Positions 3,663-27,226 are shown, counted from the stretch's first letter. The stretch is 64,000 bases of DNA from a virus (IMGVR_UViG_3300021431_000003:128001-192000); one strand, 5' to 3'. Notes: generated from the sequence alone by a model not told the origin. Numbers and translations: made by a program.

Positions 3663-3704
3663 ATAAATACCTCCTATTCATATAGAGATTAGATTTACGC
3701 AATA

Positions 3705-3712
3705 ATAATATA
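3705..3712 (-). promoter_or_regulatory. Early-type phage promoter TATATTAT-N4-G
   Basis: One of about 12 copies of the motif placed just upstream of genes; similar to the phiKZ early consensus TATATTAC. Confidence 0.6.
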
Positions 3713-3717
3713 CAACC

Positions 3718-4494: not shown

Positions 4495-4621
4495 ATATAA
4501 TGTTCCTTTCTGAGAAATATTTATAGTTAAGTTTCTACACCTGTAAAAACAAATCATTAGATATATACTATATCTATGATAGACAAATCTATCAACAAAT
4601 TTTTTAAGGAGGGTCATATTT

Positions 4622-5527
4622 ATGGCTAAGGTAAGTGAAATTAAGAATTCGGGAGAAATTGTAACTCTTGTTACACATGCAGGCAATTTTCATAGCGATG
4701 ATGTAGTTGCAACAGCAATACTCAGATTATACTTTCAATATAAGGGTATTGAAACTAACGTAGTTCGTACATTTAAACCAGCTGAAATGGGCTATACTGA
4801 TGATACTCCTAACTGTGTTATTTATGATATCGGTTTAGGACAGTATGACCATCATCAGATTGGCGATGCAGCTAAGCATTGTATCAGAATCGATACCAAT
4901 GAAGATGGTACTACTGTAGAGCGTAAGTATGCTGCAGTTGGTCTTCTTTGGAAAGAAATTGGAGAGGAAATTGTGGGTAAATACGCTGATGTTATTTATG
5001 ATAACATTATTAGACCCATCGATAATCATGATAATGGATTTGGACATAATCCTTTATCTACTCTTATAGGAGCAATGAATTCTCTTAAACCAGAGGCTAC
5101 AAAAGAAGACCATGACAACTGTTTTTATAAGGCCGTAGATGTAATTACGGCTATGCTTGTTAGCATGTTTCTTAAATATAAGCTGCAGATTAAAAATGAA
5201 GAGGTACTTCAGAAGTATGTAAAACCTGGAAGTTCGTGTCTTGTTTATGACTATTATCTTTCTGGAGCTGATGAAGTATGTAGAGAAATGTGTATTCCAT
5301 TCTATGTATATCCTAATATTAGAGGTGGTTGGTGCTTCAAAACTATTTGTCCTGATCCTAAGAATATAAGCGTTCATCTTGTTGACATTCCAGACGAAGT
5401 GAGAAATTGGACTGGTGTAACTTTCTTACATCCAAATTGCTTCCTTGGAAGTGCTGACACTAAAGAGCGTGCAATTGAAATTTGTGAAAAGCTTTGTCAC
5501 GCTCCATATAGTAACTATCTCGATTAA
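4622..5527 (+). CDS. MYG1-family (DHH-superfamily) exonuclease/hydrolase
   Basis: THAGNFHSDDV, DIG.G.YDHHQ, AAVGLLWK..G, IDNHDNG, FLHP..F motifs typical of MYG1. Confidence 0.85.
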   Translation: MAKVSEIKNSGEIVTLVTHAGNFHSDDVVATAILRLYFQYKGIETNVVRTFKPAEMGYTDDTPNCVIYDIGLGQYDHHQIGDAAKHCIRIDTNEDGTTVERKYAAVGLLWKEIGEEIVGKYADVIYDNIIRPIDNHDNGFGHNPLSTLIGAMNSLKPEATKEDHDNCFYKAVDVITAMLVSMFLKYKLQIKNEEVLQKYVKPGSSCLVYDYYLSGADEVCREMCIPFYVYPNIRGGWCFKTICPDPKNISVHLVDIPDEVRNWTGVTFLHPNCFLGSADTKERAIEICEKLCHAPYSNYLD

Positions 5528-5534
5528 TCTCAAT

Positions 5535-5572
5535 AAAATAACGGGTGTTACTACAACACCCGTTATTTTTTT
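5535..5572 (+). terminator. Intrinsic terminator
   Basis: AAAATAACGGGTGTT / AACACCCGTTATTTT followed by a T tract. Confidence 0.8.
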
Positions 5573-5580
5573 AATACAGA

Positions 5581-5592
5581 AACAATTTAGTA
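5581..5592 (+). promoter_or_regulatory. Late-type phage promoter AACA-N6-TA (AR9 nvRNAP consensus)
   Basis: AACAATTTAGTA; identical 12-mer at 20733 and 62524; 22 AAC(A/T)-N6-TA copies upstream of genes. Confidence 0.75.
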
Positions 5593-5616
5593 ATATATGA
5601 AAGGAGGTTATCTCCT

Positions 5617-6048
5617 ATGGCTACTGATGGTAAATATACAGATTACTTTGTGGATAAAACCGAACCATTGTTATCTGTAGATAAATACTATAAACCTCTT
5701 GTTGCTAAGGATGAAAACTATGCGACATTATTACTAGTAAGATTGATTCTGTTAGAGCCAGGAACTTTCCAAACACACCCAGATTGTGGTGTAGGTCTAG
5801 TTTCTAAATTCAGATATGCTACTGACGTAGATATGATTGAATTACAGAAAAGAATTAAAGACCAAATCATGTTATATTTACCTCAATACTCACTTGTCAA
5901 TGTAAAGTGTGAATTGGGTGATAATAAAACTGGTGATGAAAAAGTCATCAAAATTTATATTACATCTGAGCAGCTCAATGTCTTTTTACCAATCAATGTA
6001 GAGACAGGTGAGGTCTTAGAAACTACAAAATTAAGTGATTTTAGATAA
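5617..6048 (+). CDS. Baseplate wedge protein, T4 gp25/GPW-like
   Basis: LILLEPGT..THPDCGVGL...I..QI..YLP pattern and size typical of gp25-like proteins. Confidence 0.7.
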   Translation: MATDGKYTDYFVDKTEPLLSVDKYYKPLVAKDENYATLLLVRLILLEPGTFQTHPDCGVGLVSKFRYATDVDMIELQKRIKDQIMLYLPQYSLVNVKCELGDNKTGDEKVIKIYITSEQLNVFLPINVETGEVLETTKLSDFR

Positions 6049-8326: not shown

Positions 8327-8430
8327 TATAGATGCTAGACTTCGGTCTAGCATCTTACTTTTTCGTTATATATTATATTAGTGATAGTATAACACTATCG
8401 TAAAATATATTTTTGAAAGGAGCATGTATA

Positions 8431-11950: not shown

Positions 11951-12355
11951 ATGGAAGTGTTTACACTCAACCCTAATAGAACAGTACCACTTGTAACTAT
12001 AACAAATGAATTAGAAAAGAGAGGCGTTAATTATATTATAACTGAAGATACGTGTACTGATTTAGGTAATGATGTTGTATACGCTTCAAATCCTGAATTA
12101 CTAGATGATGAAAATGGTTTTGTTTGTAATTTTCTTTGTCCTATAGAATATATAAGAGCTTTGCAAAAAAGATGTCGAGAATATGATGTTAAAGATTGCT
12201 TTAAATCTGAGTGTATTGTTGAAAGTATTGGTAAAGTAAACAATACTAGTGTATATGCTATAAAAGCAGTTCTTCCAGAGAAACTTATTGATATTAAATA
12301 TGCAATACATGAAGAACAGTTTAAATCTTTTCTTAAATCGCTTGATAAGGAGTGA
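11951..12355 (+). CDS. Hypothetical protein
   Basis: AAGGAGG RBS; operonic spacing. Confidence 0.7.
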   Translation: MEVFTLNPNRTVPLVTITNELEKRGVNYIITEDTCTDLGNDVVYASNPELLDDENGFVCNFLCPIEYIRALQKRCREYDVKDCFKSECIVESIGKVNNTSVYAIKAVLPEKLIDIKYAIHEEQFKSFLKSLDKE

Positions 12356-12363
12356 GTTATCTT

Positions 12364-12606
12364 ATGACACTGAAAGATTTTATTAAAGTATTTAACAATG
12401 AGACAAGATTTCTCATCATGGGTGGTCGTCCAGAAGACGATAATTACTCAGTACTGTTTAACAATGTAACGAATACTGACCCTGTTGATATTGATGTCTT
12501 TGATAATGAATTATTTAAAGACTATACTAATATCGTTACAGTTGAGCTTGAGTTTGACATTCAATACGATACATCGTATATATGTATTTATGTGACAAGA
12601 GATTAA
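12364..12606 (+). CDS. Hypothetical protein (MTLKD-start family)
   Basis: AAGGAG RBS. Confidence 0.7.
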   Translation: MTLKDFIKVFNNETRFLIMGGRPEDDNYSVLFNNVTNTDPVDIDVFDNELFKDYTNIVTVELEFDIQYDTSYICIYVTRD

Positions 12607-12624
12607 TAAAGGAGGAAACTAATT

Positions 12625-13341
12625 ATGGAATTAACAGATCTCAAGGTTAAGAAGCGTGATGACTCTTATGTAGAGTTTGACAAGAGTAAGATCAGCAATG
12701 CTATCTATAAGGCTGTACTTGCATCTCATGATAATAAAGAACAGCTTGATAGATCAATTGCAGATACACTTGCTAATATGGTATGTACTTGTATCTATGA
12801 TAAAATTAATGATCCCGAACTTGATGTTTCGTCATGTGATATCATTATCTCTGTAGAATCTATTCAAGATATCGTTGAGCGTATTCTTATTAAGAACGGA
12901 TATGCTGATACTGCCAAGGCATATATCTTGTATCGCAATAAGCGTAATGAGATTCGCAACACTAGAGATAGCATTTCTAAAACAATCTCTGATATCTTAA
13001 TTAAAGATTCTAAAGATTGTGATGCTAAGCGTGAGAACGGCAATGTAAATGGTGATACACCAATGGGTACTATGCTGCAAATTGCTAGTGGAGTATCTAA
13101 AAACTTCTATATCAATAATATGATGAGTAAGGATATTGCTAAAGCTGAAACAGAAGGATACATTCATATTCACGATTTAGACTTCTATAAACTTACTGTA
13201 ACTTGTGTTCAAATGGATTGTGAGAAGTTATTTAAAGGTGGTTTTAACACAGGTAAGGGACAAATTCGTGAACCTAACAGTATTACATCGTATGCATCGT
13301 TAGCTGCTGTAGCAATTCAAGCGGAACAAAATTTTCAGCAT
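12625..13341 (+). CDS. nrdD: Anaerobic (class III) ribonucleoside-triphosphate reductase, exon 1 (ATP-cone)
   Basis: VKKRD..V.FD.SKI ATP-cone, RENGNVNG, GYIHIHDLDFY, QAEQNFQH; continues after the intron as GGISIPNFD. Confidence 0.95.
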
Positions 13342-13667
13342 AGTTTTCTGTGCCTTTAATCAGAAATGGTTAAAGCAAACGACGTGAACCTGTTTATCAG
13401 CAGGGTGTAAAAGAATCGTTAAGATTTGAGTAGTAAATGACTCATTAATTCTTTTGCTAACGGGGGATACACCAGAATCCCGTGCCAAGCTTCTTTATTT
13501 ATTATAAAGATGAAGGTTTAGAGACTATCGAAAGGATATATATCTCGCATAAGGAGATTGAAAACCGAGTAGAGTAGGGCTGAGATTGATACAGACCCAA
13601 AGTGCGTCGGGGCTGACCACTTGAAGGTGAAGCCTGTGATATAGTCCTGGTTATGTAGTGTAACCAG
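13342..13667 (+). mobile_element. Group I intron (326 nt, no ORF) in nrdD
   Basis: 5' exon ends in U and intron ends in G; P1 GCAU/GUGC, P3 CGACG(13380)/CGTCG(13605), GCTAACGGGG..AATCCCGTGCCAAGC, R AGAGACTA (13520), S GATATAGTCC (13638), P9 CTGGTTA/TAACCAG; removal restores QH-GG in frame. Confidence 0.93.
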
Positions 13668-15320
13668 GGTGGGATTTCTATTCCTAATTTTGATTTTGCT
13701 ATGGCTCCAGGTATTTATAAGTCATATAGAAAAGCTTGGGATAAAAATAGAAATAAACTACAGCAGTTTGTCGCAACTTATGGATTAGACTCATTTCCTG
13801 GCATTGATTATAATAAAAAAGATAATATAATTTTTAAGACATCAAGGACTCTAACAGATGATGATATAGAAACTTATTTGTTAGAAGATAATAAAATATA
13901 TGATAAGAATCATGATAAGACAGAACAAATGCTTGTTGTAATGACAAACGAAGATGTAAATCGTGAGTGTTATCAAGCTATGGAAGCATTCATTCATAAC
14001 CTTAACACTATGCACAGTAGAGGAGGCGGACAAGTGGCGTTTTCGTCCGTGAACCTGGGCTGTGCGTTATCTGAGGCAGGTAGAATGGTTACAAAGAATC
14101 TTCTTTTAAATCTTGAGGCTGGTTTAGGTAACGGTGAGACATCTATCTTTCCTATCACTATTTTCTTAGTAAAGGAAGGATTTAACTATAATCCAGAAGA
14201 TAAGAACTATGATTTATTTAAGTTAGCTTGTAGAGTAACAGGCAAACGTCTCTATCCAAATTTTTGCTTCGAAGATTCGCCATTTAACGCACAATATTAT
14301 AAAGAAGGAAGACCTGAGACTCTTGTTCAAACAATGGGTTGCCGCACGAGAGTTATGGGTAATGTATATGACCCGACAAGAGAGATTTCTCATTCTAGAG
14401 GTAACCTTTCTTTCACTACAATCAATCTTCCTATGCTTGCTATTGAAGCTAATCATGATGAAGAGAAATTCTATGAGCTTCTAGACAAGTACTTAGAGCT
14501 TGTAAAGAAGCAACTCTTAGAGAGATTTGAAATTCAGTCTCATATTAAAGTAAGAAATCTTCCTTTCCTTATGGGACAAGGTATTTGGCTTGATTCTGAA
14601 AAACTTGGGCCTGATGATGAAATTGGTGAAGTTCTTAAACATGGTTCACTCTCTATTGGTTTCATTGGTCTTGCTGAAACACTTGTTGCACTTTACGGTC
14701 ATCATCATGGTGAAGGTAAAGAGTATTGGGATAAGGGATATGCTATTGTAAAGCATATGAGAGATTATACTGATAAAGTTGCTTCTGAAACTCATCTCAA
14801 TTTCTCTGTACTTGCTACACCTGCAGAATCTTATTGTGGTACAGCATTAAGAAAGTGCAGAGCTAAGTATGGCGTAATTGAAGGTGTTACTGATAAAGAC
14901 TACTTCGTTAATTCGTGCCATATCCCGCCAGCTTTCAATATTACAGCATATGATAAGATTAGACTCGAAGCACCTTTCCATGAACTTTGCAATGCTGGTC
15001 ATATTGCATACGTAGAAGTTGATGGTGATGCTAGCAATAATCCTAAAGCTATTGAGACTATTGTAAAATGTATGCATGATAATAATATTGGATATGGTGC
15101 TATTAATCATCCTGTTGATACAGACCCAGTTTGTGGATATACAGGAATAATTAATGATACTTGTCCTAATTGTGGAAGAAAAGAAACTGAAGATAATCGT
15201 TTTGTAAGACTTAGACGTATTACTGGTTATCTTACAACAAGTCTTGAATTTTGGAATGATGCAAAGAAAGCTGAAGAACATGATCGTGTAAAGCATGGTG
15301 CTAGATTTCCCGAAGAGTAA
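13668..15320 (+). CDS. nrdD: Anaerobic ribonucleoside-triphosphate reductase, exon 2
   Basis: HNLNTMHSRGGGQ, MGCRT, RGNLSFTTINL, ATPAES, CxxC, glycyl-radical RITGYL; spliced product 789 aa. Confidence 0.95.
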   Translation, partial: GGISIPNFDFAMAPGIYKSYRKAWDKNRNKLQQFVATYGLDSFPGIDYNKKDNIIFKTSRTLTDDDIETYLLEDNKIYDKNHDKTEQMLVVMTNEDVNRECYQAMEAFIHNLNTMHSRGGGQVAFSSVNLGCALSEAGRMVTKNLLLNLEAGLGNGETSIFPITIFLVKEGFNYNPEDKNYDLFKLACRVTGKRLYPNFCFEDSPFNAQYYKEGRPETLVQTMGCRTRVMGNVYDPTREISHSRGNLSFTTINLPMLAIEANHDEEKFYELLDKYLELVKKQLLERFEIQSHIKVRNLPFLMGQGIWLDSEKLGPDDEIGEVLKHGSLSIGFIGLAETLVALYGHHHGEGKEYWDKGYAIVKHMRDYTDKVASETHLNFSVLATPAESYCGTALRKCRAKYGVIEGVTDKDYFVNSCHIPPAFNITAYDKIRLEAPFHELCNAGHIAYVEVDGDASNNPKAIETIVKCMHDNNIGYGAINHPVDTDPVCGYTGIINDTCPNCGRKETEDNRFVRLRRITGYLTTSLEFWNDAKKAEEHDRVKHGARFPEE

Positions 15321-15450
15321 TTGAATACTAATATTGTAATCGAGTGGTGTATAAAATTACACCACTCATTACATATAGATAATGATGCGGATCGGATTTT
15401 CATATCATTGAAGAGAATCTATCAACCAAATTTCTAAGGAGAAAATTATT

Positions 15451-15786
15451 ATGAACAACAAGAACATCAAAGCCAGAGCGTACGAATTCATGAGAAAGGA
15501 TCATGAGAATACAACGAATGATCTAAGACTCGGTTATGCATTTGTAAAGTCATCTCCGAACTTTGCAATTCAACCCATTACATTTGAAGAGATGTCTACT
15601 GTATCTCCTGAGTATCTCTTCAATTTCTATGGTAAGCCTAGAAATTCAACTCTTAGCCGTTATCGTAGAAAGTTCTTGGAAGAGAATCCTACTGAGAAGC
15701 CAAATAATGAGGATAATACTAGAGCTACAAGTTATAGAAAACAGCTGAGAGCAAGTTCTGATTCTCTGTTTACAAGATACAAGTAA
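15451..15786 (+). CDS. Small basic hypothetical protein, possibly DNA-binding
   Basis: AAGGAG RBS; STLSRYRRKF helix. Confidence 0.65.
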   Translation: MNNKNIKARAYEFMRKDHENTTNDLRLGYAFVKSSPNFAIQPITFEEMSTVSPEYLFNFYGKPRNSTLSRYRRKFLEENPTEKPNNEDNTRATSYRKQLRASSDSLFTRYK

Positions 15787-15887
15787 AATAAACCCAAGTA
15801 AATAATCTAATGTTTGTATAATATTAAGGTGAGTAGTAATACTACTCACCTTATTTTTATATTTTATAAGAAAGGAACAAAAAACTT

Positions 15888-16559
15888 ATGAAAAACAAAA
15901 ATTTTTTATCAGATGATGTTATTAAAAGGAACTGTGTACACGTTGTTGTACCAGAAGAGATTTATGACATCTTTGCTAAACAAAGCAAAACAACTGATGC
16001 TTCAATAGCATCAATCTTTAGTGGTTTCCTTATGAATGCTAAGTATGAAGATTTCAAAACGGCAGTAGAGGAACAGGAAGACTTCACTGGTACATTTGAT
16101 ATCGCTAGTGGATTTGACAACCAGAAGTTTAGAAAGCTTCTTGGGTATGCTAAAAAGTTAGGTGTATCTGTAAATCAAATGGTTAAGCAGTACACACTTT
16201 ATCACTTCAGAGATGAGTATGAAGTTTCTGTAAGATACAGCGACCCTATAATGTATGTAAAATATATTCGGGTTGAGCCTTCATTTAAGAAAGCTATAAT
16301 AAGGCTGCAGAAGAGATATAACAAGAATAACAATACTAATTACAGACTTAGTAGATTCATTGCGAATATCTTGACTGATAAAATTGATATTTCTGATATC
16401 AATTATAAGTCAAAAAGATATGATACCAATTGCGGAGACGCATCTATCTATCTTAGCTTCACAGAAGAAGAACATAGATATGTATTTGCTAGAGCTGAAA
16501 CCTGCAAAGAGTTCAGAAGATTAATAGCTAGATATATATCTAAGGACTTATCCCAATAA
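15888..16559 (+). CDS. Putative multi-ribbon-helix-helix DNA-binding protein
   Basis: About four strand-helix-helix units (VHVVVPEEIYDIF..SIASIF; LGVSVNQMVK; YIRVEPSFKKAI..LSRFIA; IYLSFTEEEH..FRRLIA). Confidence 0.45.
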   Translation: MKNKNFLSDDVIKRNCVHVVVPEEIYDIFAKQSKTTDASIASIFSGFLMNAKYEDFKTAVEEQEDFTGTFDIASGFDNQKFRKLLGYAKKLGVSVNQMVKQYTLYHFRDEYEVSVRYSDPIMYVKYIRVEPSFKKAIIRLQKRYNKNNNTNYRLSRFIANILTDKIDISDINYKSKRYDTNCGDASIYLSFTEEEHRYVFARAETCKEFRRLIARYISKDLSQ

Positions 16560-16568
16560 TATGGTAAT

Positions 16569-16615
16569 TAGGTTGGAGACTAACATGTCTCCAACCTTTT
16601 ATAAAAAATTTATAA
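16569..16615 (+). repeat. 47-bp direct repeat copy 1 (contains 11-bp-stem hairpin)
   Basis: TAGGTTGGAGACTAACATGTCTCCAACCTTTTATAAAAAATTTATAA. Confidence 0.95.
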
Positions 16616-16634
16616 TTAGAAAGGAATTGATAAT

Positions 16635-17867
16635 ATGATTATCGAATTTAAGAACGCAAAGAAAACAGAAAACGGAGAGTGTGCTATTTCTAAAGTTGTT
16701 TCAACACTTGGAATTAGAACAACAAGAGGCTATTTTGATATAGCTACAATGCCTGAAAACGTCCCTATTGACGTTAACCCTAGAAAAGACCATATTGATA
16801 GCGAAGTAACAGATGCTATCGAGAAGTCTTTATCTGAAAGTAATCCTTTGTTTATGGAAATGAATAGAGGTTTGCTTATTATCTGTGAGGATGTTAAAAT
16901 TGATGAAGATAAGAATTCCGTAACAGTAAAAGTCAATAACGACCCTTATGAAGGAATAGCAGATGGAGGACACACATATAGATGTATTGTCAAATATCTG
17001 CAATCACTTAGAACCGCATCACTTCCCATTAATAAGGATAAGATGTATGTTCCTATCGAGTTTGTATGGGGAGATGCAGAAAGCAGACAGAAGTATGCTT
17101 TGCTTATCTCTATCGCAAGAAATACTGCTAAGCAGGTTAGTGATATCGCAATTGCTAATAAGCTTGGTAAATTTGATATGCTGAATAAGATTTGGTATGG
17201 GCAGCCTTGGTTATTTAGAGTTGTATATGAAGAATCTAGAACAGCAGAATTGGGAATCGGTAAGATTTTACAGATTCTTAATATCTTTAACATGGATAAC
17301 TGTAAAGCGAAAGATGGCAGCTTTAATCCGAAGTCTGCTATTAATTCAAAAGATGGCTGTAACAAGTCATACGAAACTCTTTATGATGTATATAGAGAGA
17401 CAGTAAGAAATCCATACTACGCAATGCGTAACATCATGATTGACATTTTCAATCTGTACGACTTTATCGAAAGTCGAATTCCTGAACTGGCTATCAATAA
17501 TGGAATAGACTGGAATTCTTTTGAATCTGGTAACGGTAGAGGAAGAAAGAAATTCGGTGAAATCACAAAAGACAGAAGAACATTATTTTATGACAATAAA
17601 AAGTTATATTATTGTCCTAGAGTATTTGTTAAACCAATGTTGTCTGTATTAAGACCGCTAATTGGTTTAGATAATGACGGATTCTATAAATGGAATACTG
17701 ACCCGTTTAACTTCTTTGAAAAATATGGTGCAGAGTTTGTAAAGATTCTGTGTGAGTATTATTCAAATGACGGAAATCATTCCCCTTCTGAAACTGCAAA
17801 GAATTGCAGCATGTGGAGTGACCTTCATAACAAATCTATCGAATTTGTCAAAAACGATAGAAAGTAA
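16635..17867 (+). CDS. AIPR-family (ParB/Srx-like) protein 1
   Basis: NPR, F..MNRGL.I, GIADGGHT, ISIARNT.KQV motifs of the AIPR domain. Confidence 0.8.
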   Translation: MIIEFKNAKKTENGECAISKVVSTLGIRTTRGYFDIATMPENVPIDVNPRKDHIDSEVTDAIEKSLSESNPLFMEMNRGLLIICEDVKIDEDKNSVTVKVNNDPYEGIADGGHTYRCIVKYLQSLRTASLPINKDKMYVPIEFVWGDAESRQKYALLISIARNTAKQVSDIAIANKLGKFDMLNKIWYGQPWLFRVVYEESRTAELGIGKILQILNIFNMDNCKAKDGSFNPKSAINSKDGCNKSYETLYDVYRETVRNPYYAMRNIMIDIFNLYDFIESRIPELAINNGIDWNSFESGNGRGRKKFGEITKDRRTLFYDNKKLYYCPRVFVKPMLSVLRPLIGLDNDGFYKWNTDPFNFFEKYGAEFVKILCEYYSNDGNHSPSETAKNCSMWSDLHNKSIEFVKNDRK

Positions 17868-17878
17868 ATAATATTAAC

Positions 17879-17926
17879 TAGGTTGGAGACTAACATGTCT
17901 CCAACCTTTTTATAAAAAATTTATAA
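17879..17926 (+). repeat. Direct repeat copy 2
   Basis: Same as 16569-16615 with one extra T. Confidence 0.95.
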
Positions 17927-17945
17927 ATCGAAAGGAACGATTACT

Positions 17946-19205
17946 ATGAGTAACAACAACATGAACAACGAGAGAAATCCCTTTGTAGAGGCTATTATGG
18001 AACCTATGAAGGAAGAAATCAAAAAAGCACATGACGAAATCGACAACTGTGAGAGAAACGGTGTTCGTTATGTAAACACCACTCACGAAGAATTCGTTAA
18101 GACGATGCGTGAAAAACGAGATAATACATATGATTTCAATCTTTCTACAATAAAAGTCGACGAGTACAAGTGCGAACTTGCCCCTGCGCTCGATGATGCT
18201 TCTAAGGATTGTGGTGTCGTATATTTATTCCCTCATTATCTTATCAAATCTCCTAAGTACAGAATCGAACCTGATATCGAGGATACTGACTTGGTAGATA
18301 TCACTTATATCTGCAATTACGATGAATTGCTTACAGTACTAATTAACAAGAAAGATATGTCTTGCCTTGGATTCAGAAGATTTATTCTGGATACTATGGA
18401 CAATATGCTCTATACTCTCAATATGTGTAGAATTCCCAAGATAAGAGACCCTGAGAGTTATCTGTCTTATCGTCAGTTAATGACGTTGATTTGCTTTGTA
18501 AACAAGTATAACAAATATCTTCTCATTCTTCCATACAGATTCAAGAATGTGCTTGTTCACATTTTTGGTGATAATGAATACAGATATCGTCGTTATGCTA
18601 TCGCTACTATCGCTGAAAATGGCAAAGTCAGAGGCGATGTTATGAATAATCATCTTGTTGAAAAATCCGCAGCAAAGAAGACCGCTAATTACGATTACAG
18701 AAATGATAATCCTAATTATAAGTATGAGGCGGCTATGAATTTCACAAAGATGAGTGACAAAATTGACTACGAGATTGCTAATTATGATACTTTTATGGTT
18801 GACCTTATTACCTATTACGATGGCAATCTCAGAAAGCTTGTAAAAGAGTTCAATGAGAAAGCTGATGAGGTAGGTATTGAAGAAGCCTGGAAGACAAAGG
18901 TAGGTTTTATTATCCTTAAGTATATCGACTATATCGCAGAGTTCAAGACTGAGGATATGAAGCCTATCAAACTCTATGTAAATGCTTACAAACGTCTGTG
19001 CTTTACTGATAGAGTAAAGAAATACGAAATTGAAGATAACTTCGGTAAGCTCTTCGGAACTCTTCCTACACCTAAACCTAATCCAGACTACAAATATAAT
19101 CCTGATGATTTCAAAGTTGAAGATGATTCAGATTATATTACTGAACCTGGTAGTATGATTGTCATCTTCAATAATAAGAATCTTGAGGATGATGACGCTG
19201 AATAA
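17946..19205 (+). CDS. Hypothetical protein
   Basis: 419-aa ORF, AAAGGA RBS, terminator at about 19216-19249. Confidence 0.8.
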   Translation: MSNNNMNNERNPFVEAIMEPMKEEIKKAHDEIDNCERNGVRYVNTTHEEFVKTMREKRDNTYDFNLSTIKVDEYKCELAPALDDASKDCGVVYLFPHYLIKSPKYRIEPDIEDTDLVDITYICNYDELLTVLINKKDMSCLGFRRFILDTMDNMLYTLNMCRIPKIRDPESYLSYRQLMTLICFVNKYNKYLLILPYRFKNVLVHIFGDNEYRYRRYAIATIAENGKVRGDVMNNHLVEKSAAKKTANYDYRNDNPNYKYEAAMNFTKMSDKIDYEIANYDTFMVDLITYYDGNLRKLVKEFNEKADEVGIEEAWKTKVGFIILKYIDYIAEFKTEDMKPIKLYVNAYKRLCFTDRVKKYEIEDNFGKLFGTLPTPKPNPDYKYNPDDFKVEDDSDYITEPGSMIVIFNNKNLEDDDAE

Positions 19206-19372
19206 TTTGGTTATAAAGAAGGCTGGCTATTTGTCAGCCTTCTTTTTTTACATTGTATATTATTATTGTGATAGTGGAGTCATAACCCTATCCTGTGGAG
19301 GACCGCTAGCTCATAGAAGAGCTATATTAAAATTTATTATGGTCCAAGAGCAGTATACCTGGAGGTATAGAT

Positions 19373-20653
19373 ATGGCAAACGTAATCATTAACAACAACA
19401 AAATCGAGACAATGGCATTTCCTAATCCTGTGCTTCTCAGAAATGTAGAGGTAATTCCTACTTTTGAAACAGAGATTGATACTGGTACGGTGCATACTGC
19501 ACTCGTGAGGGTGGAGGCTAAAGATTTAGTTTTCTTCCCTATGAAAGCCAATCCGCGCAGCTATAATGAAGGAGGCTCGACTACCAAGAAAATTAAAAGA
19601 ACTTTGGTAGAAGAACCTCAATTGTTTGAGGTCTTGAACAGAGGTATCACTGTTGTATGTGATTCTCTCAAGTTTAATGACGGGGAAGCTCTTTTTACAT
19701 TCAGTTCGTGGTCTCAAGGTGTGGTCGATGGCGGTCATACTATGACAACTGCTATTAAAACAGTAATAGCAGATGAAGATAACCTGACAAATCATGCTAA
19801 GGTTACAATCAAGGTTATGTATGGACCTGGAGTGGTGGCATTAGCAAGCCGAATCAGCGAGACATATAACACAGTTGAAAAAGTCTCGCAGATGTCAATG
19901 AATAACTTGCGAGGGTATTTTGACCCTGTTAAGGAAAATTTAAAACCCACAAGTTATTTTAATGACATAAAGTGGGAACAAAATGAAAAAGGCTGTCGCA
20001 TTTCCTGTAATAGGATAATCGGCTTACTCAATTCATTTGACCCTTCTCGTTGGGGGCAGCACAATGGAATTATATCTCAACCTACTGATAGCTATAATTC
20101 CGCATCTCATACACAGCTTGACGTACAAAAGATGTATGAGACTAAAGGATTCACGCCAGAGAATCCGTATTATGCTTTATCCAAAGTAACATCTCAAATT
20201 ATAGAGTTGTTCGAGTGGACAGAGCATAATTTGCCAATGCTCTATGAAAAGAGCACTGGAAAAAAATATGTGAAGCTCGAAGTTACTTTACCGACTGGTA
20301 GAAAGGCAAATTTGTCCTCTTTTGTTGAGGGAGCGAAAACTGTAAAGGATGATGATGAACACATCGTGTATAAAACATATTTTCACGGTGATAATATTCC
20401 ATCATATATACCTACATCTCTTGTTTATGCAATCATTGCGCCAATGCGGAGATTGCTCGAAAGAGATAAAAATGGGTTTTACTATTTTATAGTAGACCCT
20501 ATAAAAATATTCGAAATCGTTGGTCCTGCTGTAGTAACACGGGCAATTAATTTCTATCCAAAAACATGGGACCCGTATAATATGCTGAAGGACCCTAACT
20601 TTTGGGCAGCACTTGAGAGTGTTACTGTTGAAGAAATGAACAAGCTTAAATAA
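19373..20653 (+). CDS. AIPR-family (ParB/Srx-like) protein 2
   Basis: ANPR, F..LNRGITV, GVVDGGHT, ISETYNT..KV motifs; colinear with 16635..17867 (shared NPYYA). Confidence 0.8.
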   Translation: MANVIINNNKIETMAFPNPVLLRNVEVIPTFETEIDTGTVHTALVRVEAKDLVFFPMKANPRSYNEGGSTTKKIKRTLVEEPQLFEVLNRGITVVCDSLKFNDGEALFTFSSWSQGVVDGGHTMTTAIKTVIADEDNLTNHAKVTIKVMYGPGVVALASRISETYNTVEKVSQMSMNNLRGYFDPVKENLKPTSYFNDIKWEQNEKGCRISCNRIIGLLNSFDPSRWGQHNGIISQPTDSYNSASHTQLDVQKMYETKGFTPENPYYALSKVTSQIIELFEWTEHNLPMLYEKSTGKKYVKLEVTLPTGRKANLSSFVEGAKTVKDDDEHIVYKTYFHGDNIPSYIPTSLVYAIIAPMRRLLERDKNGFYYFIVDPIKIFEIVGPAVVTRAINFYPKTWDPYNMLKDPNFWAALESVTVEEMNKLK

Positions 20654-20773
20654 GTCGTATCACGTTAAAATTACTTTGCTTTTGAAGGGTTGCTCCACTC
20701 CAGCCCTTCTTTTTTGTCCTCAACACATAATTTAACAATTTAGTAATATTTATATATAAAGGAGTGTGTCACT

Positions 20774-21574
20774 ATGTTTGACTTATATAGAAACGACCAA
20801 ATTTATAATATGGTCGCAGAAGGTGAGGTAGCTACGCTATTATCTCAATTCTCTAATTCGTACGTTATGGATGTTATTAACAACTCTATTAGAAATAGAT
20901 TTGCTTATAACCCAGCTGTATCTAATCCAAATATTGTTAACTCTTATGAGATCAACTTCAAGGATATGCTAGGTAGATTTCCGTCTGATGCTGATAATAT
21001 TATGTCTATTAGATATGAAACCTATCTAACTATCATCAATAAGATTTGTTCTTCTTTCAATGTACAATACGTTGGAAATGAACCAGACTGTTATATTCTA
21101 GCATATAATCTATACGACCTATTTGTTTCTGGCTATGCTAGAAACATCATTAATTTTTTCGCTCGTTATATCTATGCTAACAGAGAACAACTATATACTG
21201 CCATGAATCTAGATCGATATAAAAAGATTAAAGACAGTACTTCTAATTATATCCGAAAAGCATATAATGACCAAACTGTATCTATTATAATTGCTAGAAT
21301 CAAAGAAGTAATTTACTATATTTCTGGTTTCGATATTGATTTCTATACTTTCTTGACATTCAATTACAATAGAGATACGTGTGATTTCTTATATCAAAAC
21401 ATTCAACCTTTTGGAAATATCTTTAAGGATGAATTCTGTCAAGTTATTAATAATCCAGAAATTCTAACAGAGATTAGAATTGCAATTCAAAAAATGATGG
21501 AAGCTGACATGTTAGCTTCTCAACAACAGCAAGACAATAATCTAGGAGAGGAAGAAGAAGGAGCTGAGTATTAA
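20774..21574 (+). CDS. Hypothetical late protein
   Basis: AAGGAG RBS; late promoter at 20733. Confidence 0.8.
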   Translation: MFDLYRNDQIYNMVAEGEVATLLSQFSNSYVMDVINNSIRNRFAYNPAVSNPNIVNSYEINFKDMLGRFPSDADNIMSIRYETYLTIINKICSSFNVQYVGNEPDCYILAYNLYDLFVSGYARNIINFFARYIYANREQLYTAMNLDRYKKIKDSTSNYIRKAYNDQTVSIIIARIKEVIYYISGFDIDFYTFLTFNYNRDTCDFLYQNIQPFGNIFKDEFCQVINNPEILTEIRIAIQKMMEADMLASQQQQDNNLGEEEEGAEY

Positions 21575-23385
21575 TGCCAGTTATTAACAATGCATACCCT
21601 GTAGATGAAAGTAATTATGTTTATTCACCATCTGATATGGATATTACTCATAAAGATATGAGTAGACAAGACATCAATAATTTGATTGATTCTCTATGTA
21701 AAACCCGTATGGAGAATCCAGATGTGGTATTGATGGACAATATTAAAAATGAAGCTAAATTCTATGACCCTATTGCTCAAGAAAAGAGAGAACTTGAACA
21801 GGATAATATCGCTGTTGAAGAAGAGATTCTCAAAGGTATTTTTGAATCTGATACCCCAATGAGTGTTGAAGAACAAAATGAACTTATTGCTAAGGGTATG
21901 TATCAAAAGTATCAAGAAATGAAAGCAAGAAAATTGGGTAAGTCTGTACAACAAATGGCCAAGGAGGACAATGAAGCTATGAATGATATCGAAGCAGAGC
22001 TCAGAGCAAGTATGAATACACCTATGGCAGGTGATATTGAACAGGTGACAGAAGTTATTTCTGAAACACCTATGGAGGAAATTACAGAGAGTTCATTTCC
22101 AATTGAATTTACAGAGGAAAAAGAGTCTACTGGAACAGGTGAAATTGCTAATCCAGTTGAAGGTACTACTCTGGTTAAAGAGAGTGCTGGAATGGATGCA
22201 GAGTCTGTAATTGATGCTTTTGAAACAGAGAGAAATAAAACTGAAGAGAAGCATCTTTCTAAAGAGAGTATTGCTAAGATTGTAGGCGGTCTTCCTACTG
22301 CAGCAGCTGTAATGGCTAATTCACAAGAAGAAACTCTTGAAGATGTAATGACAGAGTTTAATGATACTGTAGATAGTATTAAGAATCTGCCAGAAGCTAT
22401 TGCTACTAATAACAATGATGTAGAAGAAGACAAGCCTATGTCAATTGAAGAATTTAATGATGTTCCTGCAACTGAAATTAATCTCCCTGATGATGTAGTT
22501 ACTTCCGCACTTATGGAGCAGTATGATAATGTAAATTATGAAGAAGCATTACAGCTTGTAGATGTAATGAATCGTTATAAGGCACATGAGAAGTTTAATG
22601 TATTTGAAGCTTTACCAATGTCTATTAAAACAGTAATTCTTCAAGAAGCTGCATCTGTTGGAGCAGACCGTTCTACAGTTAACTTCTTTGCAAAGACATT
22701 CATTAATGACCTTGTAAATAATACTTATCTCGATAGAGAGATTAAGGATTTCAATGCTGAACTTCAGGAAGCTATGGCTCCTATGGGTAACATTGTAGGT
22801 ACTATGATGGATGAATATAATGATGAAGTATATAATAAGTTTACTACTAAGCTTTTTGAAAAGGCTGATGAAATTAGAAACTCTGACCCAGAAAAGGCAC
22901 TTCAACTTAATACTATCGCTACTAACTTTGAAGCTGCTGTAACACTTAGTAGAATCCGTTCTAATCTTTCTGTTAATAACTCCATCTCTAATAAGCATTA
23001 TAAATATGCTAGAGATAACTGGAAAAAGCTTGTAGAAGAGTATAATAATATTATCGCTAATGTATCTCCTAAGCCTAGAGATTTGGATATCTGTCTTAAG
23101 GGTCTTATCGTAGCTGGTTATCCAGAAGATTATGCTAAGACTATTATTTCTCTTGTAGTATCTGAGGTAAAAGATGCTGTAAAGAACGGTAGCCTTGAAG
23201 AGCATATCTACGCATATTATCTTACTAATTCTCTACTCAATCTTAACTATACTGCTAATAATAGTAAGGTAATTGAGAAGATTAAGTATGGTGTTGATGA
23301 TGCTATTAATATTATTGATAAGTATATGACACCTCTTAAGATGAGAAATACTAAGAAGAACAGAAAGAGAAATAAGAGAAAGTAA
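21574..23385 (+). CDS. Hypothetical acidic protein with basic C-terminal tail
   Basis: 603-aa ORF, TAATG-coupled to the upstream gene. Confidence 0.8.
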   Translation: MPVINNAYPVDESNYVYSPSDMDITHKDMSRQDINNLIDSLCKTRMENPDVVLMDNIKNEAKFYDPIAQEKRELEQDNIAVEEEILKGIFESDTPMSVEEQNELIAKGMYQKYQEMKARKLGKSVQQMAKEDNEAMNDIEAELRASMNTPMAGDIEQVTEVISETPMEEITESSFPIEFTEEKESTGTGEIANPVEGTTLVKESAGMDAESVIDAFETERNKTEEKHLSKESIAKIVGGLPTAAAVMANSQEETLEDVMTEFNDTVDSIKNLPEAIATNNNDVEEDKPMSIEEFNDVPATEINLPDDVVTSALMEQYDNVNYEEALQLVDVMNRYKAHEKFNVFEALPMSIKTVILQEAASVGADRSTVNFFAKTFINDLVNNTYLDREIKDFNAELQEAMAPMGNIVGTMMDEYNDEVYNKFTTKLFEKADEIRNSDPEKALQLNTIATNFEAAVTLSRIRSNLSVNNSISNKHYKYARDNWKKLVEEYNNIIANVSPKPRDLDICLKGLIVAGYPEDYAKTIISLVVSEVKDAVKNGSLEEHIYAYYLTNSLLNLNYTANNSKVIEKIKYGVDDAINIIDKYMTPLKMRNTKKNRKRNKRK

Positions 23386-23448
23386 TATATGAGGGGTGAG
23401 TAAAATCACCCCTCAACATTTTATTAAAATACCAAAGGAGGTAATATT

Positions 23449-23835
23449 ATGGTTTCTTTTTTAACTTGTAATGCAAAAGCTGTATTAAGACTTATCCTTG
23501 AAGTATCATATCAAAAAAAGGATAAGATTGCTAAATGTGTATACGAGATTTCTTCTGATAAGGTATATAAGATTACCGTAGCTGATAATATGACTGGTCT
23601 ATATACTTATAATGCTCGTGTTACTGGGTATACTATGTGTAATACAAAAGAGGTGTTATCTTTTGTAAACCAGAATACTAAACCTACTGTAGTAGATACA
23701 CTTAAGATTGACTACTCAGAGGATAATATCTCTAAGACTGCTTCTATTAATGTGGCAGATATTCGTTACATTGAGGAGTTGTCTACATCTGGTTTTGATG
23801 AGATTCTGAATCGTGAAATCCCGACTTTTAGATAA
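23449..23835 (+). CDS. Hypothetical late protein
   Basis: AAGGAGG RBS; late promoter at 23415. Confidence 0.75.
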   Translation: MVSFLTCNAKAVLRLILEVSYQKKDKIAKCVYEISSDKVYKITVADNMTGLYTYNARVTGYTMCNTKEVLSFVNQNTKPTVVDTLKIDYSEDNISKTASINVADIRYIEELSTSGFDEILNREIPTFR

Positions 23836-23884
23836 TACACATTCAGAAACAAAATAATAATATTTTTATAAGGAGGAATCTATC

Positions 23885-24139
23885 ATGTTTGATAAGATGA
23901 GAAAAGCAGTATACGACTATGTCGTATCACACCTTGATAAGACCGATGAGGTTTCTATCACACTTGACGATGTTTATATCGTATGGACTTGCAAGGCACT
24001 TCAGAACTGGAAGGCTTGTATTAGTACTACTCTTCCCGATGGTATGTACTACGAGTGTACATATAACGGAGATACTAATGAGCTCTATCTGGATGCTTAT
24101 AAGAAGTTCGAAAACAGAGTCATTAAAGATTTTAATTAA
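23885..24139 (+). CDS. DUF6275-family protein
   Basis: DVYIVW.CK.LQNWKA.IST...DGMYYE.TYNGD..ELYLDAYKK.EN signature. Confidence 0.8.
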   Translation: MFDKMRKAVYDYVVSHLDKTDEVSITLDDVYIVWTCKALQNWKACISTTLPDGMYYECTYNGDTNELYLDAYKKFENRVIKDFN

Positions 24140-24831
24140 TGGAGGTAACTAAAATGGTTGATATGTATGAAGAGCCTACTACTCCTGATAATTGCAATTA
24201 CGAAGTGATTGAAAACTATCTTTCTTTTACTCAAGCTCTTGATAAGCTGATTAAAAAAGAGGATGACACTACTGACAATAACGAATATGGCATTAGAATC
24301 TGTACATGGAATAAAGCTATTGTAATCAGAATTCAGAAACCTGATGAAAACTCTAAAATGACAGGAAGATATCTTTATAAGAACGTACATTATAAGAACT
24401 ATAAAGAAAATAATATTCCTTGGGTTCCTAATAACGAATACATCTTCAATAATTTCTGGGAATTAGTTAAGTTCGTTAAGAATGAAGATGTAATTCCTGA
24501 TAATGAAACTATCAATAAGATGACTGCTTCTATGTATGATAATAAGAAATGTGAAGCTTGGTTTAAGAATCCAGATATTCAGAAAGAATTCGACAACTGC
24601 AGACGCAAGTGTGAAGAACTCAAGAAAGACTATACTAAATATCGTAATCTTGTAACCAAGGATAAGACTGAAGATAACGATAAATGCGCTCCTCATTGTG
24701 CTAAGAAGTGTCTCAATGAGTGTCATAAGGCTGAAACAAAACCTAATAACAATCAGACAATCATTGTAAAAGGCGATGTAAGAAAACTCGTTGATACATT
24801 TGATGAGATTATTGATGCTCTGTTAAGTTAA
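24139..24831 (+). CDS. DUF2829 / Thoeris anti-defence 2 (Tad2)-like domain with Cys-rich C-terminal extension
   Basis: SFTQAL..L, IR...WN...VIRIQ.PDENSKMT..YLY, PWVP....F...WELV follow the DUF2829/Tad2 pattern. Confidence 0.6.
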   Translation: MEVTKMVDMYEEPTTPDNCNYEVIENYLSFTQALDKLIKKEDDTTDNNEYGIRICTWNKAIVIRIQKPDENSKMTGRYLYKNVHYKNYKENNIPWVPNNEYIFNNFWELVKFVKNEDVIPDNETINKMTASMYDNKKCEAWFKNPDIQKEFDNCRRKCEELKKDYTKYRNLVTKDKTEDNDKCAPHCAKKCLNECHKAETKPNNNQTIIVKGDVRKLVDTFDEIIDALLS

Positions 24832-24868: not shown

Positions 24869-27226
24869 TTATCTCCAAGAGTATTCATTATTGTTTTGAT
24901 AATCATTACTATCCATAGATTCAGAATAGAAGTTATCAATAGCTCCTAACATACTATATCCATTATCGTCACCTTCTAATTGTTCAAGAGGAATATTAAA
25001 TTGTCTAGAGTATGCTTCTTTACCAACTTTAGTTGCTAGTATTTGAGCCATTGCCATATCATTTTCCATCTTTTGCTGTGCTAAGAACTGACTATATAGT
25101 TTTGTCTTATCAAGCTGTTTTAATTGCTCGTTAACCATATCATCATGTTCAAGATTTTCTATATCTCTAACAATAGATATTTCTTCTGTAGCATTAAAGT
25201 CTTGGAAAATTTCTTGTGCTTCGTCATCTGCTGTTCTAAGTGTAGGAATAGAGATGTGCCAATTCTCTCTAACATTCTTTCCATAATAAATAGGATAGAT
25301 AGAATATAAGTAAGAGAATGTACTATCGTCATGACTATTAGCAGAGTGGTCAATACGACCTGTCTTCTTAATCTCAAGATTCTTTAATTCTTCATATAAA
25401 ATTGGAGAAATGAATTTATCATAATGGTCTTTTACTCTGTCTGTAAGTAAGTCCATTAACTGTTCTCTTACAGTACCAGTATTATCTACACCATATACTT
25501 TAGTAAGTTGCTTTCTCTTATGAGACCTTAATCCATCAGGGCGTTCTTCTATAGTACGCTCTTTAATCTCATAATATAGATTATTTCTAATCTTAGATTT
25601 CATTAGTTTAGCTAGTGTACCTGTACCTACACCATTACGTTCTATAGTAACAAGTGAGTTAGGTAAGTAGTTTAATACAAGATTATATATTACTGTAGCC
25701 AAGTCAACTGGGTTAATATAGTTACAGTTAAAATCCGCAACAAGTTTAGTGGTCTTAGAATCTGTAACAGAAATTGCAGAAGAGTCCTTAGAATAACCTG
25801 CTGCAACGTCGACGCCAATCAATGTCTTATCTCTTGGGGATATCTCGGAATAGATATTGAATAGGAAGTTGGAGATATAAACTTGCTTAATTGGGTTACG
25901 TACATATCTCTGTACATTTCTAAGTTCCTCTTGTGTAAACGGACAATTCTCAGAAGATGTAGCCCATTCAAGTAAGAATTCACGTCTGATGTCAGTCCAT
26001 TTCTGGTTCTGTTCTTTGATTCTTTCCTTAAGCCATTCTTCAGAATATCCAAGTTGCTGATAAGTAGTTCTAATATATACAAAGATAGACTTCTCGTTTG
26101 CATTTAATGTCTCTGTAAGTTTCTGTAGAGAGAAATCATACCAAAGTTCGGAGAATGGAGTCATCTTATTCTTAAGGTCATACATATATTGACCTTCTTC
26201 TGTGGTTAAGAAACCAGGTGTAGATGTAAGACAGAGACCGTGAGGTGCTCCATTCATTCTACAGTTTCTAAACGCAGTAGTAAGTGCAGGCATACCGTTC
26301 TGTAAGGATTCTTCTAAGTACTGGAAGAATGCAGACTCATCTATCCAACAGTTAGTGATAGTTTGACCACGAAGTAAAGATATAGCTGCTGTTCTATTAC
26401 GTGCCATTGGAAGAGCCTTGATATTATTAAAGTTAATCTTATGCTGGATATATTGTACTGTATTAGATGCTTTAAGCTTCTTACCATCTACACCGAATGC
26501 TTGGTCAAATCGTAAATAAGATGGTAATGCTTTAATAATATCTTTAAGAGAAGATAGGTTACGCTTAGCATCATCATGTTTCTTATTAAGGAATATCATA
26601 TTAGCATTTCGAGAACCAAAGTTATATACCCAAGAATACCATACTTCAGTAGCAACAGTTTTACCTGTCTGACGGGGTTGTTCTTGATAAATATTAAGAT
26701 TCAACGTAAAACAAAAGTTTAGTGCTAAGTTACCTCTATCAAGTCTATATCTTACATAAGGTCCACCCTGACTCTGTACTCTAACGACTTCTCTTATATA
26801 ATACCAAAAGTTTCTTTGGCATTCTAGAAATACTTTTTGTTTTGTATAAGGGTCTAAGTAAGGGTCATGTGGGTCTATATATGCTAAATCCTTATCGTAT
26901 AATAATAGATGGAATTTATTATTTTTTATACCTTTGGCTTTTAGGTAATAGTGCATATCTAAGAAAGACTGGTTTTTTGTATTCATTTGATAAAAGATAG
27001 ATACATATCCTGAACCATCATATCTTCTATCTTCTTCTATACCATTACTATTTTTATTAGACATGAAACTTAATAATGGAACATATCTACGTTGGCTAGA
27101 ATTATTTGGTATAGGATTCATAGTAGACAAATTATCTGGTTGATTATACTGTACATCAGTATTATCTTCTTTTTCTTCTATGATAGTAATACCAGTATTT
27201 ACAACTTTCATGATATATGATAACAC
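24869..27226 (-). CDS. terL: Terminase large subunit
   Basis: Walker A PRQTGKT, Walker B CWIDE, motif III TST, RNase H-like IGVDVAAG..D, IERN, HDD. Confidence 0.92.
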   Translation of the reverse strand: MLSYIMKVVNTGITIIEEKEDNTDVQYNQPDNLSTMNPIPNNSSQRRYVPLLSFMSNKNSNGIEEDRRYDGSGYVSIFYQMNTKNQSFLDMHYYLKAKGIKNNKFHLLLYDKDLAYIDPHDPYLDPYTKQKVFLECQRNFWYYIREVVRVQSQGGPYVRYRLDRGNLALNFCFTLNLNIYQEQPRQTGKTVATEVWYSWVYNFGSRNANMIFLNKKHDDAKRNLSSLKDIIKALPSYLRFDQAFGVDGKKLKASNTVQYIQHKINFNNIKALPMARNRTAAISLLRGQTITNCWIDESAFFQYLEESLQNGMPALTTAFRNCRMNGAPHGLCLTSTPGFLTTEEGQYMYDLKNKMTPFSELWYDFSLQKLTETLNANEKSIFVYIRTTYQQLGYSEEWLKERIKEQNQKWTDIRREFLLEWATSSENCPFTQEELRNVQRYVRNPIKQVYISNFLFNIYSEISPRDKTLIGVDVAAGYSKDSSAISVTDSKTTKLVADFNCNYINPVDLATVIYNLVLNYLPNSLVTIERNGVGTGTLAKLMKSKIRNNLYYEIKERTIEERPDGLRSHKRKQLTKVYGVDNTGTVREQLMDLLTDRVKDHYDKFISPILYEELKNLEIKKTGRIDHSANSHDDSTFSYLYSIYPIYYGKNVRENWHISIPTLRTADDEAQEIFQDFNATEEISIVRDIENLEHDDMVNEQLKQLDKTKLYSQFLAQQKMENDMAMAQILATKVGKEAYSRQFNIPLEQLEGDDNGYSMLGAIDNFYSESMDSNDYQNNNEYSWR

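Follow-up and report, generated by a model that had tools for sequence, protein, structure and literature searches.

The AIPR proteins (AIPR/AbiU1, Pfam PF10592) form an abortive-infection family linked to restriction-modification (RM) systems (PMC3506569, PMC3632139), whose bacterial members are fused or adjacent to varied nucleases (PMC3632139) and whose long members carry an N-terminal HEPN toxin or RNase (PMC3506569). The family is among the oldest-named and least understood in abortive infection, and we describe it here on the phage side, with its core residues intact, in a 64,000-nucleotide stretch of viral DNA (the window; bases 128001-192000 of the IMG/VR record IMGVR_UViG_3300021431_000003, G+C ~33%). 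Two short stand-alone AIPR genes, AIPR1 and AIPR2, are found there in an island of five genes located between nrdD and a conserved gene of 266 amino acids (aa), hereafter the anchor. To judge from the sequence, the source is an uncultured AR9/phiKZ-like jumbo phage of ruminant guts, distantly like AR9/PBS1. Both AIPR genes add to a family already described, and the phage-side, hypervariable cassette locus that carries them together with an ORFan partner, P0003, is a new version of familiar arrangements, namely conflict genes in hotspots and PeSL-like shuffling.

The closest described proteins, Lactococcus AbiU, PADLOC AbiU and MzaE, belong to the same profile family, with weak matches over the ParB-like core: the PADLOC AbiU and MzaE models align only over profile positions 246-339, and NCBIfam MzaE gives 18.7 bits on a phage AIPR against a cut-off of 1050. 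In contrast to AbiU and MzaE, the phage proteins have no N-terminal (HEPN) region of ~245 residues; Mza and RM partners are likewise missing, and the genes belong to a phage and not to a host. PADLOC, which does not include the short AIPR form, matches none of the seven genes at 15451-23385 beyond its AbiU/MzaE models. A second close counterpart is a bacterial cassette of a short AIPR and a helix-turn-helix (HTH) gene, which has the same ~400-aa architecture, is colinear from end to end and keeps the same invariant residues; the phage AIPRs differ from it in having no HTH partner, in forming a separate clade at ~25% identity, in their phage-type promoters and in their P0003 companion. Also related are the DUF262 proteins GmrSD, BrxU and SspE, in which a ParB-like NTPase is joined by a DUF1524 nuclease, and DndB; these relatives bind or hydrolyse nucleoside triphosphates (NTP) and read the state of DNA. 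The phage AIPRs match none of Pfam DUF262, DUF1524 and DndB, no His-Me nuclease motif was recognised in them, and they carry DGGH(T/S) in place of the DGQQR/DGQHR of GmrSD, BrxU, SspE and DndB.

At the level of the locus, two arrangements are comparable. In T4-type phages, promoter/stem-loop (PeSL) cassettes shuffle genes (PMC2839356, PMC4122927), and there, as here, units of an early promoter and a stem-loop or terminator flank accessory genes and mark exact exchange breakpoints; the present locus differs in belonging to an AR9-like lineage with its own RNA polymerases, in its unrelated motif sequences and in having only two identical unit copies. The hotspots of P2-like phages and P4-like satellites (PMC9122126) likewise offer a fixed slot for interchangeable conflict genes, and systems with an AIPR domain are among the P4 cargo. 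However, those are temperate elements of Enterobacteria that protect the lysogen, whereas the carrier here is presumably a virulent jumbo phage whose slot draws its cargo mainly from a single gene family with many divergent versions.

The five predicted island open reading frames (ORFs) were confirmed, all on the plus strand (15451-20653). The island, its borders and its regulatory units are as follows (pI, isoelectric point; RHH, ribbon-helix-helix):

13701..15320, plus strand: 3' part of nrdD (anaerobic ribonucleotide reductase; Pfam NRDD, E 4.8e-147), conserved left border of the hotspot
15451..15786, plus strand: basic ORFan of 111 aa (P0005, pI 9.8), optional cargo
15817..15853, plus strand: TATAATATTAAGGTG, an early-type promoter motif, and an overlapping 13-bp stem-loop with T-run (hairpin 15825-15853), a PeSL-like unit before the first cassette
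15888..16559, plus strand: basic protein of 223 aa (P0004, pI 9.1) with four possible RHH-like units, optional cargo
16569..16625, plus strand: hairpin and AT-rich leader repeat, copy 1, left boundary of the AIPR1 cassette
16635..17867, plus strand: AIPR1, short stand-alone AIPR of 410 aa (Pfam PF10592)
17879..17935, plus strand: hairpin and leader repeat, copy 2, right boundary of the AIPR1 cassette, upstream of P0003
17946..19205, plus strand: P0003, acidic ORFan of 419 aa (pI 5.1), restricted to this phage clade
19215..19245, plus strand: terminator-like hairpin 3' of P0003 (13-bp stem, then T-run)
19256..19372, plus strand: early-type promoter motif TATATTATTATTGTG (19256-19270) and AIPR2 5' leader of ~100 nt
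19373..20653, plus strand: AIPR2, short stand-alone AIPR of 426 aa (Pfam PF10592), hypervariable slot
20684..20709, plus strand: terminator-like hairpin 3' of AIPR2, right breakpoint of the AIPR2 cassette
20734..21574, plus strand: late-type promoter AACAATTTAGTA and the anchor gene
20774-21574, plus strand: anchor gene, conserved, 266 aa, right border of the hotspot

An initial annotation of this DNA had proposed two divergent but colinear AIPR proteins with NPR, NRG and DGGHT motifs on either side of a 419-aa gene, and this description holds. Pfam PF10592 (cut-off 25 bits) matches AIPR1 with 61.4 bits (E 1.5e-16) and AIPR2 with 80.9 bits (E 1.8e-22), the domain beginning at residues 47 and 59, respectively, and a six-frame search found these two as the sole AIPR matches in the whole genome. 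The two proteins are colinear over ~380 residues at 23% identity (BLASTP E 1e-27). Both carry NPR, N-x-G and DGGH, which, like a downstream N and R, are invariant or near-invariant among 231 short AIPRs, and NPR, N-x-G, (D/N)GGH, N166 and R359 (AIPR2 numbering) are retained in 22 of 22 sequences of the phage clade.

The N-terminal domain is predicted to adopt a ParB/Srx-like fold: its top structural matches are all ParB/Srx proteins, with a resemblance to KorB, PadC and pNOB8 ParB-N. The proteins would thus consist of an N-terminal nucleotide-binding module of ParB/Srx fold followed by a helical C-terminal domain. Matches in BFVD are viral AIPR, DndB-like and GmrSD-N proteins; a Foldseek search of the AIPR2 model against the PDB gave zero matches at E <= 0.001, and a PDB sequence search with the AIPR2 profile returned chance-level matches only. 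As regards a partition ParB, neither AIPR has a Pfam match to ParBc or HTH, no HTH family was found among the island proteins of the window, and the sole repeat is the two-copy hairpin unit.

We compared the island with 17 IMG/VR loci obtained through the anchor gene and with metagenome contigs found through the proteins. Relatives were recovered solely through alignment-based and anchor-gene scans; a megablast search of 50,697 phage records with the island as query and a single-protein scan of IMG/VR each gave zero matches. Across the 17 loci the anchor protein is 64-98% identical. The content of the gap between nrdD and the anchor varies as follows:

L003: all five genes, in the order of the window
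L025: 111 aa, 223 aa, P0003, AIPR2
L028: AIPR1, P0003, AIPR2
L004: 111 aa, P0003, a diverged 223-aa-like gene, a 736-aa P0003-like gene, AIPR2
L111: AIPR, AIPR, P0003-like
L110: P0003-like, two unknown genes, AIPR
L019: one AIPR, preceded by a lone 131-aa ORF
L013, L014: a 200-aa ORF, a truncated P0003-like gene, a 228-aa ORF
L022, L023, L027: an HNH gene and two unknown genes
L024: a lone 237-aa ORF
L015, L016, L017, L018, L020, L029: zero genes, gap of ~115 nt

The island is accordingly accessory, as had been supposed: the gap is empty in six relatives and filled with other cargo in others. The further proposal that the five genes form one module fails, since each of the 111-aa, 223-aa and AIPR1 genes can be present or absent without the others and a relative exists with nothing but an AIPR; the complete set recurs in L003. 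The island is thus a variable hotspot with interchangeable cargo and not a five-gene system. The 111-aa gene is found in L003, L004 and L025 and is missing from L028 and L019, and family searches with its product found none. The 223-aa protein is 77-98% identical in L003 and L025 and 29% in L004, and is missing from L028. Its earlier designation as a multi-RHH protein is retained as a lead only: language-model Atlas feature neighbours are NikA-like, ParG and RHH_3 at 0.88-0.89, the other matches are weak, and Pfam gives none. AIPR1 is 52% identical in L028 and missing from L004, L025 and L114. In one relative, a hotspot gene belongs to the HNH_3 family.

The variation is strongest in the AIPR genes themselves. 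When L003 is compared to the window, the flanking genes are 94-99% identical and AIPR1 97%, but AIPR2 only 50%; in L115, the anchor is 96% and P0003 80% identical, but the slot of AIPR2 is taken by an AIPR that shares only 28% identity with it. Overall, the AIPRs of the phage clade fall into at least 8 lineages that are 22-32% identical to one another, AIPR1 versus AIPR2 (23%) being another such pair, on backbones with flanking genes 80-96% identical. A turnover of alleles on this scale is comparable to that seen in receptor-binding or immunity genes. The intact state of the copies, with invariant residues kept despite 22-32% identity, points to long purifying selection, and an AIPR that is old, intact, constrained in its core and swapped by allele is what one would expect of a gene that sets specificity in a genetic conflict. 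This extreme turnover fits a conflict role, be it defence or counter-defence. Natural AIPR variants on near-identical backbones also offer a handle on what AIPR recognises.

The exchanges coincide with discrete sequence units. A G+C-rich terminator-like hairpin with a T-run follows every island gene, and the 12-24 kb stretch holds 18 such hairpin sites, compared with 4.1 in shuffled sequence. The unit before AIPR1 (16569-16625) is repeated almost unchanged before P0003 (17879-17935). Its core, a 32-mer at 16569-16600 and 17879-17910, is identical in the two copies on both sides of AIPR1 and present nowhere else in the genome, with none expected by chance. In blastn alignments, AIPR1 is missing between 16626 and 17863 in L025, L114 and L004, homology ending at 16625/16626 and resuming at 17863-17870. 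The AIPR2 cassette has its left breakpoint either at 19384, 12 nt into the ORF (L003, L025), or at 19271, in the promoter (L114, L115), and in these four relatives homology resumes at 20676-20684, in the terminator hairpin, at 95-96%. Metagenome assemblies contain co-occurring variants, with contigs that end or branch at 16620, 16634 and 19340. One contig of the bovine-gut run X19 (depth 3, 85% likeness) joins 19194 to 20701 with 37 other letters between, and is a tentative candidate for a natural variant without AIPR2. Breakpoints on promoter/stem-loop units match the behaviour of PeSL cassettes, here in an unrelated phage lineage, and extend the PeSL idea from T4-type phages to AR9-like gut jumbo phages.

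The same units bear on the timing of expression. In AR9, early promoters read AAATATATATTAT-N6-G and late promoters AACA-N6-TA/G (PMC5312081). Genome-wide, the class TATATTAT-N4-[GT][TC]G, whose core resembles the AR9 early consensus, occurs 18 times versus 3.1 in shuffles (e.g. at 8369, 10676 and 19256 of the window), often with TTG/TTA before it and with a hairpin at once after it, starting near the predicted transcription start; it is probably a class of early promoters. In the window, L003 and L025, the motif TATAATATTAAGGTG precedes the 223-aa gene by 67-71 nt; in L004 and L028 it stands before the first island gene. In five genomes, TATATTATTATTGTG, which matches the AR9 early-consensus core, is found 100-117 nt upstream of the gene in the AIPR2 position. 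Before the first island gene, a TATAATAT-N6-G variant is present in the window, L003, L004, L025 and L028, with similar variants in L019 and L110. The initial annotation had assigned each gene its own promoter-hairpin unit; the hairpins are there for every gene, and an early-type promoter was recognised only before the 223-aa gene and AIPR2. On the other side of the hotspot, an AACA-N6-TA motif is found 30-40 nt upstream of the anchor in 8 of 8 genomes, as AACAATTTAGTA in most and as one- or two-base variants in the rest. The island thus looks early and the next block late. Between promoter and gene, the AIPR2 leader has a mean column identity of 80% in the window, L003, L004, L025 and L028 and is invariant over most of its length, on coding alleles that are 50% identical. 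It is predicted (19271-19372) to form a 5' hairpin and a long-range stem (GGACCG...UGGUCC), a plausible fold in a leader with too little variation for covariation.

P0003 is the recurrent neighbour, and it is far better conserved than the AIPR genes on either side of it. A gene of its family is present in 11 of the 12 AIPR-bearing hotspots (a count uncorrected for shared ancestry), at least eight of them in the order P0003, AIPR, anchor, and AIPR with the P0003 family is the only recurrent association in the hotspot. Six further members of the phage clade, on related phage contigs, each adjoin a P0003-like gene and/or occupy the hotspot between nrdD and the anchor. As had been noted from the window, the 419-aa product belongs to no detectable family or fold: none of 35 homologues has a Pfam domain, Pfam on 25 family members gave no recurrent family, a PDB sequence search with the P0003 profile gave chance-level matches only, and the Atlas feature search was empty. 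Fold searches (VIA-align wide, ESM Atlas, BFVD) with the structure model (predicted local distance difference test score, pLDDT, 62) returned generic helical or sub-threshold matches, with the N-terminal domain (~residues 40-225) barely sampled. The possibility that P0003 is a degenerate third AIPR was rejected, hhalign giving a probability of 0.2%. Conserved His, Asp and Glu residues in the alpha/beta N-terminal domain of the family make an enzymatic partner possible. Note that P0003 divergence is untied to AIPR type (relative to the window, AIPR 81% and P0003 72% in L004; AIPR 25% and P0003 87% in L114), which speaks against a co-evolving toxin-immunity pair. L004 further encodes, beside its normal copy, a second, enlarged member of the P0003 family (3495-5705), a 736-aa protein with a P0003-like region 29% identical (profile E 8e-25) and ~400 residues without family.

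The short architecture itself is common in bacteria. A profile built from both phage AIPR families and the first bacterial matches recovered 2619 cluster representatives at E <= 1e-3 and 805 at E <= 1e-30, and the 150 best of these, with few exceptions, measure 370-430 aa and are covered end to end. The phage AIPRs as truncated defence proteins were therefore ruled out: with a large native bacterial subfamily of the same short architecture, they are not effector-less truncations. We examined 80 bacterial loci (L030-L109; e.g. L007 7645-9191), mostly from Bacillota (rumen and gut Clostridia, Streptococcus, Bacillaceae), plus Bifidobacterium. In 55 of them, a divergent HTH_3 gene (~90-110 aa, homologous between loci) is located 85-120 nt upstream of the AIPR, and the PADLOC models for RM 'control protein' match it (E 5.5e-8). 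Such pairing with a C-protein-like HTH is as expected for a tightly controlled toxic effector, and the two genes look like a widespread, unnamed, self-contained and tightly regulated cassette. The 136 genes found around these loci give no clear defence-island signal: most are housekeeping genes without relation to one another, and RM, DndB or recombinase genes are few. We found no report in the literature of a biochemical activity of a short stand-alone AIPR. Two testable units are thereby defined, the bacterial cassette of C-protein-like HTH and short AIPR, and the phage pairing of AIPR and P0003.

A phylogeny of phage and bacterial AIPRs had been suggested as a check with the initial annotation. 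In the FastTree built from 231 short AIPRs, those of phages cluster apart from the bacterial ones, with a support of 0.84 for the AIPR1 and AIPR2 families and of 0.90 with L019. They appear to be a mostly phage-specific clade, ~25% identical to bacterial AIPRs. AIPR genes on phages are rare yet precedented: the cultured Bacillus phage vB_BmeM-Goe8 (Herelleviridae; L012, MN043729.1 119384-120412) carries an annotated 'putative AIPR protein', flanked by a gene like tRNA-His guanylyltransferase (Thg1-like) and, at a distance of two genes, by an RtcB tRNA ligase; an annotated 'AIPR protein' is also found in a gut podovirus.

What the AIPRs do can be discussed from these patterns. We tentatively place first an early-expressed conflict module that would exclude competing phages or other mobile DNA, because the AIPRs look fully functional, form a phage-resident clade and behave as specificity alleles. 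In such a mechanism, homologous recombination at the promoter and/or stem-loop units that bound the cassettes would insert, delete or replace them; the window stacks two cassettes from an extremely polymorphic, phage-resident clade of short AIPRs. AIPR would be produced at the start of infection and, by analogy with DUF262 and DndB, would sense foreign nucleic acid or act on it in an NTP-dependent manner, the outcome being exclusion of co-infecting phages or mobile DNA, or another role in the phage-host conflict. AIPR would be the fast-changing specificity component and P0003 the constant partner, possibly the effector in view of its conserved His, Asp and Glu. The sequence data show the family membership and short architecture, the hotspot, the cassette boundaries and their exchange, the polymorphism, the retained motifs and the bacterial pairing with HTH; early expression, activity on NTP and DNA, the target and the cooperation of AIPR with P0003 are here what we infer. 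We are more doubtful of a second formulation, in which the AIPRs would be polymorphic NTP-dependent sensors for self/non-self discrimination of co-infecting phages, or an anti-defence key set, and P0003 a new constant effector or adaptor; if true, this would be a phage-side, cassette-swapped specificity system without a described counterpart.

Less likely in our estimate, but a serious rival, is counter-defence, in which the phage AIPRs would neutralise host immunity by poisoning or mimicking host AIPR effectors of the AbiU-like or short HTH-AIPR type, or by depleting or sequestering a nucleotide signal, with one allele per host variant. Short AIPR cassettes abound in the Bacillota, which are the likely hosts and include rumen and gut Clostridia, the allele turnover would fit the tracking of diverse host targets, and the AIPR promoter is of early type. 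The N-terminal HEPN RNase of long bacterial AIPRs is missing from the phage proteins (PMC3506569), relatives and, by a weaker match, the window encode a Tad2-like anti-Thoeris candidate 3.5 kb downstream, and the Goe8 AIPR sits among tRNA-repair genes, classic answers to RNase-type abortive infection. However, the decoy version put forward initially is weakened, as every family-invariant residue is kept and the phage AIPRs are hence not inert decoys; nor, the short form being native to bacteria, does the missing HEPN region make them effector-less. At ~25% identity to the AIPRs of bacteria, they form a deep clade by themselves and not a series of host look-alikes captured again and again, which makes poisoning through hetero-oligomers less likely.

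The conservation that supports the exclusion of competitors also makes it improbable that the genes are selfish or near-neutral cargo, i.e. ORFan passengers or homing-type mobile genes that use the intron- and HNH-rich nrdD neighbourhood without benefit to the phage. All AIPR copies are intact under what appears to be long purifying selection, AIPR is more divergent than its flanks, which is the opposite of a recently spreading homing element, and no homing-endonuclease family was detected in AIPR or P0003. What this explanation does accommodate is a hotspot that abuts nrdD, with its probable intron and HNH genes in this clade, that includes an HNH_3 gene in one relative, that is dispensable, being empty in six relatives, and whose cassettes are bounded by repeats like the PeSL-flanked ORFans of T4-type phages (PMC2839356). 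We give least credence to a DNA-handling or regulatory role as ParB-like switches driven by cytidine triphosphate or another NTP that organise, partition or regulate phage DNA (cf. ParB, KorB, Noc, DndB), for which the N-domain likeness to KorB, PadC and pNOB8 ParB-N and the basic 111-aa and RHH-like 223-aa neighbours, which could bind DNA, can be adduced, but the AIPR genes are missing from close relatives, no ParBc, HTH or centromere-type repeats were found, and allele replacement at 25% identity is unexpected for a housekeeping DNA-organising factor.

The genome that carries the locus is a 223,528-bp record with direct terminal repeats, estimated complete. Its large terminase, encoded at 24869-27226 on the minus strand, shares ~35% identity with the terminases of the Bacillus phages AR9, PBS1 and vB_BpuM-BpSp and ~31% with the counterpart of Staphylococcus phage S6. 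Also present in the window are a GroEL-like gene, a GH25/M15 lysin and a split RNA-polymerase beta' fragment. The island stretch recurs, partly at 99-100% identity, in gut metagenomes of sheep, bovines and other ruminants; among the runs listed with it, none is recorded as RNA, and the single one labelled metatranscriptomic is probably DNA. To the right of the hotspot, a 603-aa gene (21574-23385) follows the anchor and overlaps its stop codon; it is 40-94% identical among relatives, its neighbours being steadier, and family searches with it were empty.

On the left border, nrdD consists of two ORFs (12625-13359 and 13701-15320) separated by an ORF-less intervening sequence of 341 nt (13360-13700). 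The alignment spanning this sequence averages 92% column identity at the DNA level, versus ~63% identity of the NrdD proteins, and several stem positions vary on both sides; it is probably a self-splicing intron. Rfam on 12000-24500 gave nothing for it or for the AIPR2 leader, and one sub-threshold small-RNA match elsewhere. Relatives carry HNH genes within nrdD, at other positions.

Further downstream, a DUF6275 gene (84 aa, E 6.6e-32) is directly followed by a 230-aa gene (23885-24831 in the window, 10472-11293 in L004). The L004 homologue of the latter matches Pfam Tad2-like with 27.8 bits (cut-off 25) and the copy in the window does so weakly (E 0.17), which makes this gene, 3.5 kb downstream of the island, a candidate anti-Thoeris sponge.

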